Source of the DNA: a virus
Taxonomy: Duplodnaviria > Caudoviricetes
DNA length: 64,000 nt
IMG/VR virus record: IMGVR_UViG_3300026177_000194
Coordinates: 26,026-90,025 of that record
Reading direction: 5' to 3' (one strand)
Positions 9,953 through 31,475 of the stretch are shown piece after piece. A program made the translations under genes and the position numbers. The number at the start of each line of letters is the position of its first letter. Positions within the stretch are counted from its first letter, which is position 1. Under the pieces are notes generated by a model, which did not search any database, was not told the DNA's origin, and saw nothing but the letters and a program-made list of their open reading frames with translations.

Positions 9953-10054
9953 TTTTAAATTTCCTCCTAAAAATTATGTTTTTTGAATTGTTATTTCGCC
10001 ATTTGATATATGTTCTAATAAATTTACGATATTAGAACAAGTTTGTTTCTTAAA

Positions 10055-11617
10055 TTAAAATATATTTGCTATATTTTTATTATACAAATTTTGATCGCTA
10101 TTTTCTTCTGACATTCCTTTAAATGGGTTAAATTTTTCAGTTTCTCCGGTTGTAGCATTTAGAGTTTCAATTTCTATCATTTGATCTGAGGTAATATCGG
10201 GTCTTCCATCATTGGATGTTTTCAATCCATTTAAAAATTTATAATGTTTGAAATTAACTTTAAAATCAATTGCAACATTATCTTTTCCACATCTATTTTT
10301 TGTAACTTTCAAATGAACTTCATCATCTTTGGTTTGATCTTTTGACATCAAAGCAATAAAATCGGCATGTTCAACTTTCTTAATTGATTCAGACATCATA
10401 TCCATATTTAAACTTTTTGAATCTTGATTTCTATATACGGATCTCCCTAATTGTGAAACAGTTATTACTGGAATATTATATTTTACTGCTATATCTTTAA
10501 GACCAGAAGTTATAAAACCTAATTCTAATCTATACAATTCATTTGTAATATCAGCTTTTAATAAATCTAAATAATCAACATATAATCCTCTTATTGAGTC
10601 TTTTCCATATTGATCAATAACATCGTCTAGATGCATCATTATATCTGTACAACTTATAGAATACTTTTGAAAATATTTAAAAATTACAGAACAACCAGAA
10701 GTTTTAGTTCTATCTGCTATAACCTTTTTAATATCAATTCCTGCATTAATATCTCTTAAAGTTTTTACTTGATCTTTTTCAAACATCATCTGATATAATC
10801 TAAGAAGACTTTCATCTATTAAATTTTCTAATGTAATATATAAATAAACTTTACTATTATTTGAAGACTTTTTATCTTTGTTTTTTGTTATATCATTGTT
10901 GATAAAATTTAAAATCATTGTAGATTTACCAGATCCAGATCCACCACCAAAGATATATAATCTAGATTTTTCAAATCCTCCATTATCAAAAACATCTTTA
11001 TCAAAAATTGTATATCCAGTATGTATAGTATTTGTTTTATCATACTTTTTTCTAATCATATCCAATACTGGAGAATAATCATCATTAATTAAATCTAAAC
11101 TTGCAGATGATTCCAAACCAACATTTCTGCTAGATTCCATTAAATTAAAATTTGCTTCTTTAATTATTTTCTCATATTTAAAGATAATCTCATCAATAGA
11201 ATCATAATTACCAGATTTAATGATATCTAAAAATCTTGAAATTTCATCATAATTAGAAACTACCCCATTCAATTTCTTTCTCATTCTAATTTGACATATA
11301 TGATCAGATAAAACATCATCCGGTACTTCTTCATTTCTTTTAACTGCAATAAAATCAGCTAAAGTTTTATATTTTTGTCCATATAAAATACTATCAATAA
11401 CATTGTCATCTGTTTTCTCATTTAATTTTAATTTGCATACCTCATTTAAACATTCAACTTTGTTTTGAATATTGATTGGTATTTCATTCTTTTGTTTTTC
11501 TTTGAAGAAATCTAATATTTCAATAATATCCCGATACAACGATTTGTTTTTCTTAATTTTTGTAGTTTTATTTAATACTACACTAAAACATGAGTTTAAA
11601 AATAAATCCGTGATCAT
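10055..11617 (-). CDS. Replicative DnaB-like (T4 gp41-type) helicase
   Basis: Walker A FGGGSGSGKST, YITLE, Walker B YVDYLDL, VSQLGR, arginine finger KNRCG. Confidence 0.85.
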   Translation of the reverse strand: MITDLFLNSCFSVVLNKTTKIKKNKSLYRDIIEILDFFKEKQKNEIPINIQNKVECLNEVCKLKLNEKTDDNVIDSILYGQKYKTLADFIAVKRNEEVPDDVLSDHICQIRMRKKLNGVVSNYDEISRFLDIIKSGNYDSIDEIIFKYEKIIKEANFNLMESSRNVGLESSASLDLINDDYSPVLDMIRKKYDKTNTIHTGYTIFDKDVFDNGGFEKSRLYIFGGGSGSGKSTMILNFINNDITKNKDKKSSNNSKVYLYITLENLIDESLLRLYQMMFEKDQVKTLRDINAGIDIKKVIADRTKTSGCSVIFKYFQKYSISCTDIMMHLDDVIDQYGKDSIRGLYVDYLDLLKADITNELYRLELGFITSGLKDIAVKYNIPVITVSQLGRSVYRNQDSKSLNMDMMSESIKKVEHADFIALMSKDQTKDDEVHLKVTKNRCGKDNVAIDFKVNFKHYKFLNGLKTSNDGRPDITSDQMIEIETLNATTGETEKFNPFKGMSEENSDQNLYNKNIANIF

Positions 11618-27357: not shown

Positions 27358-28770
27358 GTCAATTACTATGGTTCTGAAGAACCATAGCTTGATACGAAGA
27401 TTGATTTTTAAAGAATCCTTATTCGTAATGGACTATTGACAAGTCCTCTAGACAATTTTTCAAAAATTTCATTTTTGAAATTTTGCTTACTTAAAAACTT
27501 TTTCATGATATTACAAGCACCATTAATATCAGAATTAACTAAAATGCCTTTTTCACTTTGAAAAAGACCTCTTTTGATTCTTTTACCTTTATAGTTATCA
27601 TGTTTGTGTATTTCTTCATTATCTAAAAAAGAGCATTTGGAGGTATACGATTCTTCTTGATATTCAATATTTATAGAATTCAAAAAACATTTATTTCTAA
27701 TTTTAGTACTTAATTTAGAAAATGGTATTTGTACAAAGTTTTGGTTGTTAATTTTTCCCATTTTAGAATTTCTTTGAATATCTTTTAAATCACCAATTAC
27801 AATATTACCAATTTCATTAGAAATACAGTATGTAATAATTTTATTAGTTACTAAATTTAAATATTCATTAACTATATTATTTCTTTTTTCTACAACATTG
27901 TACATTCTATTTGAATATCTTTTGGAATTTGGTTCTTGTTTATCAAGAATACTTTTTAACCTTGCTATTTCTTTATTGAATCCTTGGTTTATTGATTTTA
28001 GTTTTTTACCATCTATTATAAAAGATGTCCCTTCAGAATCAATACATGAAGCAAGATTAGATACTCCTAAATCTATACTCAGAAACTTATCTGGATTTAA
28101 ATGTTCATTTTTTATTTCCTTCTTTTTATAAGTGATATGTATTGTAAAATATTTTGCTTTTTGTCTTGGAACTATTTTAATTTCTTTAATGGAATTTTTA
28201 TCAATGTGTTTTGGAAGGTCAAAGAATAAAAATCTTTTACTAATATTAAATTTTTTTTTAAACTCACCAGTCATTGAAAGCCGAATTTTATTATCTATAA
28301 CTTGAAACATTTGTTTTTGCCAAATTATTGGATAATAAGAGTTTTTGTCTAAATACCCTGGTAAATTAACTTTACCCAAATCAATTCCTTCTTTCTTCTT
28401 TTTAACTAGTTCAAAAAAAGATCTAAATGAAAAATCAACAGATCTTAACACGTTTTGACCAATTTGAACTAAAAATTTATAATTTTCATTATATTTACAA
28501 TCATGGTAATTAGAAAAATAATTTGTATACTTTCCTTCAAATATAAATTTTTGTCTCACATTATAGACGCCTACATTGTACATATTCTTGCATAATCTTG
28601 ATAATAATACAAGAATCTCAAATGATTCTTTATCAATGTTCCTAAGCTTGTTGACTTGTGTAAGATACATTTTTCCTCTTATAATAATTATAGATTTAAT
28701 ATTTGTTCTAAACAAATCAGAAGATCGGTTCAAATTCATCTAAGGGTCTAAAGACCACTTAGTTTTCTTT
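27358..28770 (-). mobile_element. Non-autonomous IS200/IS605 element (TnpB only)
   Basis: Left-end hairpin ctaag-ggtc/gacc-cttag near 28740-28762; right-end hairpin ctatggttct/agaaccatag ending TTGAC at 27358; removing it joins the two flanks in frame. Confidence 0.75.
27408..28670 (-). CDS. tnpB: TnpB (IS605 OrfB), rearranged-RuvC type
   Basis: SIDLG; IVIGDL (Gly in place of the canonical Glu); QEESYTSKC; NSDINGA; start MYLTQ with AGAGG. Confidence 0.85.
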   Translation of the reverse strand: MYLTQVNKLRNIDKESFEILVLLSRLCKNMYNVGVYNVRQKFIFEGKYTNYFSNYHDCKYNENYKFLVQIGQNVLRSVDFSFRSFFELVKKKKEGIDLGKVNLPGYLDKNSYYPIIWQKQMFQVIDNKIRLSMTGEFKKKFNISKRFLFFDLPKHIDKNSIKEIKIVPRQKAKYFTIHITYKKKEIKNEHLNPDKFLSIDLGVSNLASCIDSEGTSFIIDGKKLKSINQGFNKEIARLKSILDKQEPNSKRYSNRMYNVVEKRNNIVNEYLNLVTNKIITYCISNEIGNIVIGDLKDIQRNSKMGKINNQNFVQIPFSKLSTKIRNKCFLNSINIEYQEESYTSKCSFLDNEEIHKHDNYKGKRIKRGLFQSEKGILVNSDINGACNIMKKFLSKQNFKNEIFEKLSRGLVNSPLRIRIL

Positions 28771-28908
28771 GACCGAATTATATAAATCTTCTGAACTTTG
28801 AAAACCTTTTGGATCTATTTTTAAAATGTTTCTGAAAATATTTCTTATCTCTTCATGAATACTGCAAATAGTAAAATATGGTTTACTATTAACATGAAAT
28901 TTTTTCAT
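28771..28908 (-). pseudogene. 5' part of a small ORF interrupted by the TnpB element (3' part at 27304-27357)
   Basis: MKKFHV...DLYNSV joins in frame to NSNQFSLFDEIYEEVDE*. Confidence 0.5.
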
Positions 28909-29221: not shown

Positions 29222-29390
29222 CTTGAAGTTTACACCAATTTGGAAAATAATTAAATTCTCTAGCTAGTTTCTTTTTGTTTACATTTCTAGATGATTTTTT
29301 ACAATAATAAGATTGATAAAAATCAGAATAATCTTTATGAATTAAAAATGGACATTCAGAACAACTTTCAATTACTATTTTTTTACTCAT
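29205..29390 (-). CDS. Small Cys-rich hypothetical protein
   Basis: CSECPF...YYC...FPNWCKL. Confidence 0.6.
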   Translation of the reverse strand: MSKKIVIESCSECPFLIHKDYSDFYQSYYCKKSSRNVNKKKLAREFNYFPNWCKLQDDTGD

Positions 29391-29571
29391 ATTCTGATAA
29401 CTCCGTATAATCTTTTTCTGGTGATTCTATAAAACATCTTTTTAAATAATCTTTACCACCATCTACTGAAACTCTTCCGCAAAAACATGATTTGAAATCA
29501 TGTCTATGTACAGATTCAATAATATCTTTACAAAAGTTGCATTGAATCTTATTAGTCTTTATAATAATAAC
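29383..29571 (-). pseudogene. 3' part of a small zinc-ribbon phage gene split by the IscB element (first 3 codons at 31060-31068)
   Basis: Removing 29572-31059 restores MDKVIIIKTNKIQCNFCKDIIESVHRHDFKSCFCGRVSVDGGKDYLKR... Confidence 0.75.
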
Positions 29572-31059
29572 GAAGAAAACTAAGAGGTCTTTAGACCCTT
29601 AGATGAATTCGTTAAAATTCTGTTACCATTGAATTTGATCTTCTTTTTAAAATTTTAACTTCTGTTAATTTTACAAGTTTCTTCATGCTATTGTTAAATA
29701 TATCCATAACAATAGCATATCCTGTTGACATCCTTCCCTTTACAAAACAAATAATATTATTACATTTAATTTTATCAAATTTTCTAACATTCATAATTTT
29801 CCCAGTTGGTATTTTCATTTGACTTCTAATTCCTTTTGTTTGTTGATAATCACCTTTTGATATATTTTTAATATGAAATCTATTATCTGGAATTACATCT
29901 AGAATTGAACAAGCATTATTTATTGGATTGTGTTCTAAATTTAAATTTTGTCTTTTTGATTTAACTAAAAAACCATAGGTTTCAATTGAATTTTCAATAA
30001 TAGAATTCTTTCTGATTATAGATAATTCAGTGTCAGGTTTTCCTTTATATACATTTTTATCAATATTTAAAATTATCTTTCCTCTATGATATTCAACATG
30101 ACAAGTTTTACAAAGTGTTATAATATTTTCTATATTATCTTCTCCTCCATGTTCTCTATGAATAACATGATGAGCATGAAGTTCATAATTTTTGGATTTT
30201 CCTTTACAATGTCTACATCTAAAATTATCTCTTTCAAAAACTTGTCTTTGTAAATTTAACCATTCTAAATCTTTAGGACCTTGATAATCTTTTTTTATAG
30301 AATTTTTAACAATAATCCAATTTAGATTTGGAAGTATTTTTTCAACCCTTCTAATTTCTCTTTTATGACTTTCTATTTTTGATGTTATTGTTGGATTAAA
30401 TTTTCTATTACTTTTTCTATTTAAAAATCTGCATTTTCTATATCTAGTTTTTCTATTTCTTCTGGTAATTCTATATGATTTTCTTCTTTTCATTTTCATT
30501 GAAATGTCATTTCTTAATTCTATTGTTGAACTATATACACACTTATTGTTTGCTCTTGATGAAATTCCAATTTTACTTGAACTTGGAACAATTGATGATT
30601 CAACTTTTTGTCTATAACCACTTGATCCATATAAAAGTTTAATTGTGAAAGGACAATTATTTACAACTTTTGCTTTCCCATCTTCTAATAATTTTCTTGC
30701 TTTTCTTGGTTTACATGGCATTAAAGGTTTACCATGTTTGTTTAGTACAAAAACTAACATATGAGTTTTTTCTCCTATTCCTGAGTTATGGCTGTTTTCA
30801 ATCTTTTACCAATTGAAAATTAGCAACTTCCTCTCGACAATGTTATTTTAGCTTACTCATTTAAAACGAGTCAATCTGGGTTGACTAAGAGTTTCCTCTT
30901 TGTTTACAGTGCCCACTTAGAGCCAGAAACTGAGGCGACATTTCTGGGTAAGATAACTAAAATAACGTAGGTAAAATTTCTTTTACCTTAGTCTGGTGAA
31001 CCAATTACTCTTCTAGATCACTCCAGAAGCCTTAACTCTTAAGAGTTAAGGTGATTCAC
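29572..31059 (-). mobile_element. Non-autonomous IS200/IS605-type IscB element
   Basis: Terminal hairpins at both ends (ctaagaggtc...cccttag; ccttaactct/agagttaagg...TTCAC); precise excision restores the host ORF. Confidence 0.8.
29612..30760 (-). CDS. iscB: IscB (PLMP-RuvC-bridge helix-HNH) with degenerate RuvC
   Basis: GKPLMPC, RRNRKTRYRKCRF, HHVIHREHGG..N..TLC..CH; the RuvC D/E/H/D positions read V/K/P/N. Confidence 0.85.
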   Translation of the reverse strand: MLVFVLNKHGKPLMPCKPRKARKLLEDGKAKVVNNCPFTIKLLYGSSGYRQKVESSIVPSSSKIGISSRANNKCVYSSTIELRNDISMKMKRRKSYRITRRNRKTRYRKCRFLNRKSNRKFNPTITSKIESHKREIRRVEKILPNLNWIIVKNSIKKDYQGPKDLEWLNLQRQVFERDNFRCRHCKGKSKNYELHAHHVIHREHGGEDNIENIITLCKTCHVEYHRGKIILNIDKNVYKGKPDTELSIIRKNSIIENSIETYGFLVKSKRQNLNLEHNPINNACSILDVIPDNRFHIKNISKGDYQQTKGIRSQMKIPTGKIMNVRKFDKIKCNNIICFVKGRMSTGYAIVMDIFNNSMKKLVKLTEVKILKRRSNSMVTEF

Positions 31060-31083
31060 TTTATCCATTGTTTTAAATTCCTT
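30775..31083 (-). ncRNA. IscB omega-RNA (HEARO-like) with 5' guide
   Basis: GTGAATCAC...GGTTCACCAGACTAAG...CTACGTT...CCAGAAATGTCGCCTCAGTTTCTGGCTCT...AACATTGTCGAG upstream of iscB; boundaries approximate. Confidence 0.75.
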
Positions 31084-31159
31084 TGGCGTCGGTAATTGGA
31101 TTTGAACCAATGTTGACCGAGTGTTAGGGACTCGCGCTAAACCTCTCAGCTATACCGAC
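31084..31159 (-). tRNA. tRNA with CUA anticodon (amber-suppressor type), atypical C33
   Basis: 76-nt cloverleaf: GTCGGTA/TACCGAC, D stem GCTG/TAGC, anticodon stem CGAGT/ACTCG with loop CC-CTA-AC, T arm ATTGG-TTCAAAT-CCAAT, encoded CCA. Confidence 0.8.
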
Positions 31160-31160
31160 A

Positions 31161-31475
31161 TTATTCTAATAAATTTAACGAACTTAAAAAACCAGAATCT
31201 TCTTCATTCACAAGAGCACAAAATGCAGTCATCTCATTATTTAAATCCGGTTCATAAAAAACACTAGTTTCAATGTTTCTTTTTTCAAATTTAAATAACC
31301 AATTTTTTAATTTTTTTAAATTTTCAACTTGTAAATAAACCAGAATATGATTATTCCATATAGTTGAAAACCTGCTGCGCAAACAAAATTCCGCAGTAGC
31401 GTGACCAGCTTGCACAGCAGGTGATGAATAATCTAAATCCTTACGCACAAGCACGTATAGCTTGCTCTGCTTCAT
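31161..31475 (-). CDS. Peptidyl-tRNA hydrolase PTH2-like protein
   Basis: KLYVLVRKDL...AVQAGHA...FYEPDLNNEMTA. Confidence 0.7.
   Translation of the reverse strand: MKQSKLYVLVRKDLDYSSPAVQAGHATAEFCLRSRFSTIWNNHILVYLQVENLKKLKNWLFKFEKRNIETSVFYEPDLNNEMTAFCALVNEEDSGFLSSLNLLE

Follow-up and report, generated by a model that had tools for sequence, protein, structure and literature searches.

A phage-borne IscB lineage without a RuvC active site as a candidate natural RNA-guided target-strand nickase

What does a transposon-borne IscB do once every catalytic residue of its RuvC nuclease has been replaced and its HNH nuclease stands intact? The question is raised by a 382-aa iscB gene and its omega-RNA in a 64,000-nt stretch of viral DNA, hereafter the window, by which we mean the whole stretch analyzed: bases 26026-90025 of the 90-kb IMG/VR virus record IMGVR_UViG_3300026177_000194, whose completeness CheckV puts at 19%. 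The record carries a T4-like portal, a family-B polymerase fused to uracil-DNA glycosylase (UDG), a DnaB helicase and ThyX, a gene content that identifies its source as a large T4-like phage. The phage is present in wastewater and digester studies. An initial annotation, made from the letters of the DNA, had proposed that the protein might be a natural RNA-guided nickase, kept by selection for single-strand nicking (nick-primed homing) or for RNA-guided binding rather than decaying. On the evidence given below we consider it fairly probable that the element encodes an omega-RNA-guided HNH nickase, specific to the target strand, which drives the element's own retention and homing.

The gene and its four substituted RuvC codons, each codon checked, are as follows.

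29612-30760, minus strand: iscB, 382 aa, assigned by Pfam, PDB sequence matches, Foldseek and catalytic-residue alignments; domains PLMP, split RuvC fold with dead positions, bridge helix, intact HNH, and a C-terminal region interacting with the transposon-adjacent motif (TAM)
30587-30589, minus strand: GTT, codon of V58
30305-30307, minus strand: AAA, codon of K152
29924-29926, minus strand: CCA, codon of P279
29915-29917, minus strand: AAT, codon of N282

Judged by Pfam, by sequence match to solved IscBs and by predicted fold, the 382-aa protein is an IscB. Pfam places RRXRR/PLMP (PF14239, 6e-42) at residues 3-147 and finds an HNH domain (PF01844, 2.5e-10), the best PDB sequence matches are IscB chains (OgeuIscB, 2e-20), and a Foldseek search with an AlphaFold2 model ranks IscB first (8csz, E 1e-18; also 9k30 and 7xht), all top matches being either IscB or IsrB. 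The split RuvC fold is retained, as the model best fits IscB structures and the profile alignment runs through RuvC-III; the PLMP motif is present, and the bridge-helix residues R93, R97, R100, R101, K104 and R108 are invariant.

Within this frame the RuvC active site has gone. With OgeuIscB residues numbered as in 7xht, HMMER pairs LGIDPGR of RuvC-I with SSIVPSS (D61 to V58) and VVLELN of RuvC-II with IIVKNS (E193 to K152), and a profile alignment sets PKDHYLDA of RuvC-III opposite EHNPINNA (H340 to P279 and D343 to N282), so that the catalytic D, E, H and D characteristic of IscB are all missing (V58/K152/P279/N282). The changes that the initial annotation had read by eye, LGID to SSIV, E to K in RuvC-II and H..DA to P..NA, are thus the ones recovered by alignment and codon, and it was also right that HNH, PLMP, bridge helix, open reading frame (ORF) and full omega-RNA are kept, all of which we observed by Pfam, alignments and Rfam. 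The HNH residues H197, H198, N212, H221 and H225 are in place, as are the zinc cysteines C182, C185, C217 and C220. From these residues, double-strand RNA-guided cleavage is not predicted for the window IscB, which would cut one strand at most.

The loss is shared by an entire lineage. From a set of 5.8 billion proteins we took a graded series of 27 homologs (340-416 aa, identity 99% down to ~50%), and in their alignment the RuvC-I Asp, RuvC-II Glu and RuvC-III His are absent from 27/27, the RuvC-III Asp being Asn in the nearer members and kept in one sub-clade only. Across the clade the dead positions are filled by V/I/T/A (58), K/R/C/S (152), P/A/Q/E/S (279) and N/D (282); all 27 proteins lack ~16 aa after RuvC-II and a further segment after RuvC-III; and the five HNH positions (HHNHH) are identical in every one, down to 50% identity. 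For these readings alignment A1 and a localpair alignment were used, and the RuvC-II column of a large automatic MAFFT alignment, misplaced by the deletion, was disregarded. A quick IQ-TREE run groups the homologs in a single clade (SH-aLRT 100, stem length 0.76) adjacent to canonical Methanosarcina-type IscBs, and an exhaustive 50%-representative library holds the clade as a single representative (548 bits), the next match being a canonical IscB (265 bits). The lineage was seen only on phage-like contigs. Because the other IscBs from viral contigs read D/E/H..D without exception (35/35), the RuvC loss is, on the sequences compared, specific to this lineage and neither general to phage IscBs nor an artefact of alignment.

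Selection on the gene is evident from substitution rates: all unsaturated pairs among nine clade genes (dS 0.1-0.9) give NG86 ratios of nonsynonymous to synonymous substitution (dN/dS) of 0.14-0.30, by which measure the clade is under purifying selection. The initial annotation had made its case depend on homologs sharing the substitutions under such selection, and on close homologs not having an intact RuvC; the 27 homologs share the losses, the nearest ones included, and its preference for selection over decay is supported by the shared losses, by dN/dS and by the covarying omega-RNA described below. Being lineage-wide and accompanied by selection on the gene, the RuvC loss is, as far as sequence can tell, not local decay.

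Two further patterns were seen among the aligned proteins. P0020-P0024, P0027 and P0026 keep the RuvC-III Asp (NDA) and lack the D, E and H, with C217 intact in P0026. Dispersed in the tree, P0125, P0127, P0148, P0213 and P0249 lack the RuvC-I Asp and RuvC-III His and have a nearly intact HNH motif (P0249 has Arg at the first His), which suggests independent RuvC losses with HNH kept in P0125, P0127/P0148, P0213 and P0249.

Upstream of the gene lies its RNA.

30823-31059, minus strand: omega-RNA scaffold (HEARO; Rfam RF02033, 113 bits, model positions 1-211 of 211)
31060-31083, minus strand: guide region, 24 nt of native flanking phage DNA separating the CCA end of a tRNA from the scaffold

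A full HEARO is found in every clade locus that has upstream DNA (100-114 bits), with compensatory covariation in 27/65 predicted omega-RNA pairs across 9 clade loci. Conserved sequence extends past HEARO as far as the iscB ribosome-binding site (RBS) at about 30770, which is itself conserved, and on the upstream side it begins exactly at GTGAATCACC, the DNA 5′ of GTGAATCACC being unrelated among loci. The first omega-RNA hairpin also serves as the right-end hairpin of the transposon. The interrupted host ORF has its first three codons (ATG GAT AAA) within the guide region, of which the part in use is probably the 3′-most ~16 nt or more. In a comparison with public runs, which used contigs only, a 254-nt metatranscriptome contig of run X15 covers 30782-31033 at 100% identity, and the same run has no cover of the iscB ORF; this gives a weak hint that the omega-RNA is an expressed and abundant species, the contig being of low depth and the RNA library perhaps not free of DNA.

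The element that carries gene and RNA can be delimited to the base.

29563-31059, minus strand: non-autonomous IS200/IS605-type IscB element, 1497 bp, with exact junctions against sister phages
29563-29611, minus strand: left end of the transposon as read on the plus strand, carrying a subterminal hairpin at 29585-29598
31029-31052: right-end hairpin, followed by GATTCAC
29558-29562, plus strand: TTTAT TAM abutting the left end; ATAAA on the iscB strand
29383-29562, minus strand: remnant of a 67-aa Cys-rich phage ORF, severed after codon 3 by the insertion

A metagenome scan with the 3′ half of the tRNA returned three sister-phage contigs (L071, L072 and L073) that are 95-99% identical to the window in the flanks and lack both the IscB and the tnpB elements. 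Their empty site reads ...GGATAAA|ATAAAGAC..., where the occupied allele carries GTGAAT...TTATTATT at the bar. The two alleles differ by exactly 29563-31059, target duplication and terminal inverted repeats are absent, and the insertion directly adjoins the 3′ end of TTTAT on the plus strand. The guide region is identical at 24/24 positions to the empty sites of L071 and L072, where the match is followed by ATAAAG, so the nick-primed homing first suggested for this locus would have a natural target, and the 24/24 match with its adjacent ATAAA is consistent with homing or retention. In the 90-kb record the guide has no second match, the best other sites having 3 mismatches, about as in the control. 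An exact 20-nt guide scan gave three matches in unrelated genes, rejected as chance; none was followed by TAM or scaffold. Upstream of the 67-aa ORF remnant there is no in-frame ATG, GTG or TTG start. As references for the empty site, L060-L064, found through their PTH2-like neighbour, were set aside as too distant (only 40-50% identical), and an exact IMG/VR scan with the tRNA 3′ half gave no match.

The element has also moved. Contigs of runs X14 and X17 contain the empty-allele joint (29562 to 31071), and contigs of runs X1 and X14 run past the element end at 31059 into different flanking DNA, which marks further insertion sites. Clade loci lie between baseplate genes/gp25, before the tail sheath, and at a topoisomerase subunit, a clamp loader and glycosyltransferases, all co-oriented. 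Because of these empty alleles, alternative flanks and diverse insertion loci, the element is recently mobile. About 49 nt past the iscB stop are conserved in five loci (the window, L057, L002, L058 and L049), always followed by ATAAA, and TTTAT likewise abuts both tnpB-type elements of the record. The 50-nt left-end motif recurs inverted at 28733-28782, upstream of tnpB (86% complementary), and a third copy lies outside the window at G000:C1:~11464, upstream of an element with TnpA and TnpB.

L065:901-1287: Y1 TnpA, 128 aa (Y1_Tnp, 5e-39), adjoining tnpB and the matching left-end motif, in the same virus record

This Y1 TnpA could serve the IscB element in trans. By ‘homing’ we mean OMEGA-type transposon homing and not a free-standing homing endonuclease gene, because the element belongs to the IS200/IS605 type of transposon and its genome also encodes a TnpA.

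In three of the clade loci (L002, L058 and L049) the left end of the element finishes in GGAGGT, the next phage gene downstream having its start codon ~8-11 nt further on, and in L058 the displaced native GAGGA lies at the opposite junction. Where it lands between an RBS and a start codon, the element may bring a substitute Shine-Dalgarno sequence of its own.

We propose that transcription from the flank, which probably takes in the tRNA directly upstream as well, yields an omega-RNA with the adjacent phage sequence as its guide. The ribonucleoprotein (RNP) would recognize the unoccupied allele, a guide match followed by ATAAA, presented either by a co-infecting sister phage or by the joint that remains in the donor once the phage-encoded Y1 TnpA has excised the element. 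With RuvC catalysis absent, HNH alone would cut, nicking the target strand (the transposon top strand) close to the TAM. In T4-like phages nicks readily feed recombination-dependent replication, and such replication would turn this nick into a recombination substrate repaired from the occupied copy. The element would thereby be restored or spread without a two-ended double-strand break (DSB), restorative and non-restorative transposon homing being the terms of PMC13565253. In the IscB model of Meers et al. the guide comes from the right-end flank and the TAM is shared with TnpA (PMC10055086), and the geometry of the window element is the same, with a right-end flank guide and a left-end TnpA motif equal to the TAM. 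An ATAAA-type TAM is known for IscB, OrufIscB using NTAAA/ATAAA (PMC13180657), and an IscB whose RuvC has been inactivated by D61A functions as an editor nickase (PMC13180657, PMC11666462).

Set beside canonical IscBs (OgeuIscB, GstIscB of ISGst5 and OrufIscB), the window protein has the same PLMP-RuvC-bridge helix-HNH-RuvC-TID architecture (TID, the TAM-interaction region), and the locus has the upstream HEARO omega-RNA, flank-derived guide, IS200/IS605 ends, empty-site target and AT-rich TAM (ATAAA/TTTAT) shared with TnpA (PMC10055086; PMC13180657). Unlike them, it has none of the four RuvC catalytic residues, has lost two RuvC-adjacent segments and measures 382 aa against roughly 420-500. 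With IsrB, the RuvC-only OMEGA nickase, it shares the character of a natural single-site effector with an omega-RNA, and for IsrB a nick suffices for an IS-borne effector (PMC9581776, PMC10734277); IsrB, however, lacks HNH and nicks the non-target strand, whereas here HNH is present and conserved, so that the protein is no RuvC-only form without an HNH insertion, and the predicted nick is in the target strand. IshB is described as a ~180-aa protein of PLMP and HNH with the whole RuvC domain absent, whereas the window IscB, at 382 aa, keeps the RuvC fold, bridge helix, TID and full HEARO omega-RNA and falls outside that description. In solved IscB structures it is through the RuvC fold, bridge helix and TID that guide RNA and heteroduplex are bound. 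The functional state expected is that of engineered nickases such as IscB D61A and Cas9 D10A, with RuvC dead, HNH active and a target-strand nick (PMC13180657, PMC9755519), but those are single laboratory substitutions, and this is a natural, old lineage under selection that has lost the RuvC site and undergone deletions as well. In the literature searched we found no description of a natural, conserved, omega-RNA-bearing full-length IscB lineage with the whole RuvC site lost; the nearest known are the short IshB and the engineered D61A nickases, and the concept itself is not new.

Among the alternatives, the one that survives best, though we think it unlikely, is an RNP that only binds, forming an R-loop at the empty site and acting as a roadblock, regulator or marker without cutting. 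There is precedent in TldR, a nuclease-dead TnpB-like repressor that, like this IscB, has naturally lost RuvC catalysis and is often phage-borne; loss of nuclease residues in OMEGA proteins accompanies exaptation to such RNA-guided repressors (10.1101/2023.11.30.569447), and the RuvC lobe is trimmed in this clade. TldR, however, has no second nuclease and carries fixed guides against host promoters, whereas the window IscB has HNH and a guide from its insertion flank. Set against mere binding are the HNH positions, unchanged in all 27 proteins even at half identity, and the zinc ligands, unchanged except in one sub-clade of six with C217D. At each landing locus the guide is the local flank and varies with the locus, which is the behavior of mobile OMEGA elements rather than of fixed regulators; the record holds no second guide match beyond the near-control sites with 3 mismatches; and the element is recently mobile. 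Nicking is favored over binding by the invariant HNH residues and by analogy with the engineered D61A IscB nickases.

We regard as distinctly improbable the idea that the RuvC-dead IscB, through an R-loop or a nick, helps Y1 TnpA to insert at a guide-matched TTTAT in the manner of CRISPR-associated transposons (CASTs). A TnpA with a matching left end is encoded in the same genome, the nick expected from HNH would lie on the same (top) strand as the TnpA insertion point and within a few bases of it, and CASTs do use nuclease-impaired effectors to guide transposases (PMC10734217). Yet a guide copied from the flank fits only the site already used and could not direct the element to new loci, clade members sit at many unrelated loci that share only TTTAT, as expected from TnpA alone, and the TnpA target strand pairs with the guide and is hence not the displaced single strand.

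A functionless relic, in which RuvC loss is the neutral decay of a selfish gene hitch-hiking on TnpA-driven transposition, seems very improbable. TnpA alone suffices to move non-autonomous IS605 elements (PMC10055086), and one clade copy bears a nonsense codon; but full-length open genes have been kept over 50% divergence at the low dN/dS given above, the HNH positions are invariant, the omega-RNA covaries and the RBS is conserved. Least probable of all is a rewired RuvC in which other residues complete the metal site and DSBs are still made, for although catalytic residues have been relocated in some TnpB/Cas12 lineages (PMC10691335), and the initial annotation had itself named substitute acidic residues as a way to be wrong, all four positions are replaced in the window IscB, and across the clade each drifts, mostly among non-acidic residues; the clade has also lost the segment after RuvC-II, and no conserved acidic residue specific to the clade lies inside the RuvC motifs, the only ones being D164 (linker) and E193 (HNH).

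Several points weigh against the nickase reading. We infer nicking, strand choice and RNP formation from sequence and by analogy, and guide length, guide processing and the conversion of nick to recombination are deduced likewise. The clade copy at L002 (529-1677; 80% identical) has an in-frame TAA, from CAA, at the invariant Q51, with the remaining gene and the omega-RNA intact; individual copies therefore decay, as expected for selfish elements. The zinc ligand C217 is D in the six-member sub-clade P0020-P0024 plus P0027. The two RuvC-lobe deletions might impair R-loop formation or HNH activation, unlike the point mutant D61A. The AlphaFold2 model is of only moderate confidence (predicted local distance difference test score, pLDDT, 76.6), and the hint of omega-RNA expression is a single low-depth contig from an RNA library possibly with DNA in it.

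Our judgement is evenly poised on the broader proposition that a phage-restricted IscB lineage has been selected as a natural target-strand-only nickase, that its DSB-free, nick-initiated transposon homing would then be an OMEGA strategy of its own in recombination-proficient phages, and that RuvC loss with HNH retained has occurred independently in several other IscB lineages. If the nickase reading is true, the natural OMEGA series would be complete, with IsrB nicking the non-target strand, IscB cutting both strands, and the present lineage nicking the target strand with a full RNA-guided architecture, and the double-strand break would be dispensable for selfish IscB function, at least in T4-like phages. 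It would also connect OMEGA systems with an earlier finding, that HNH homing enzymes of phages can act as nickases. Phage HNH homing endonucleases of the I-HmuI and I-BasI class nick one strand of the empty allele and home during co-infection; they recognize their target by protein, are intron-encoded or free-standing, and are neither RNA-guided nor transposon-borne. A 382-aa HNH-only IscB would be a compact D10A-type nickase chassis with an ATAAA-type TAM, HNH-only being the nickase polarity used by base and prime editors, and the clade alignment reveals which segments of the RuvC lobe can be deleted. Since occupied and empty alleles, guide, TAM, TnpA and sister elements have all been identified, the locus is an unusually complete natural experiment and the hypothesis is directly testable.

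On the minus strand the local order is PTH2-like gene, tRNA-CUA, HEARO/omega-RNA, iscB, two small ORFs and a tnpB-like gene.

31161-31475, minus strand: PTH2-like gene, adjoining tRNA-CUA
31084-31159, minus strand: tRNA with anticodon CUA, in the flank outside the element
27408-28739, minus strand: tnpB-like gene, downstream of iscB

Because the pair of PTH2-like gene and tRNA-CUA is also found in phages without IscB and in the empty-site contigs, the tRNA belongs to the flank and not to the element. A nucleotide search of the GenBank phage collection with the locus gave a single irrelevant 109-nt match. In the window (31084-31475) and in L060-L062 the PTH2-like peptidyl-tRNA hydrolase gene is directly followed by the CUA-anticodon (amber suppressor) tRNA, a module kept among related phages despite only 45-50% protein identity.

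The sister elements offer some observations of their own. The element at L065 (G000:C1:~9964-11500) comprises the Y1 TnpA, tnpB, an upstream 60-aa ORF, and the same left-end hairpin and TTTAT. Compared with L071 and L072, the tnpB-type element of the window (27364-28781) is likewise inserted DNA, and it too follows TTTAT. In its TnpB, which had no match in a phmmer search of the PDB, IVIGDLKD stands in place of the LVIEDLKN found in the TnpB of the TnpA+TnpB element, suggesting a RuvC-II change of E to G, and the usual CxxC zinc-finger cysteines are seemingly missing. This product may be a second OMEGA effector of the phage whose RuvC is impaired. At the insertion junction at 27364, ~125 nt that lie between two TTTAT sites of L071 are absent from the window, a loss that may be a TnpA-associated deletion.

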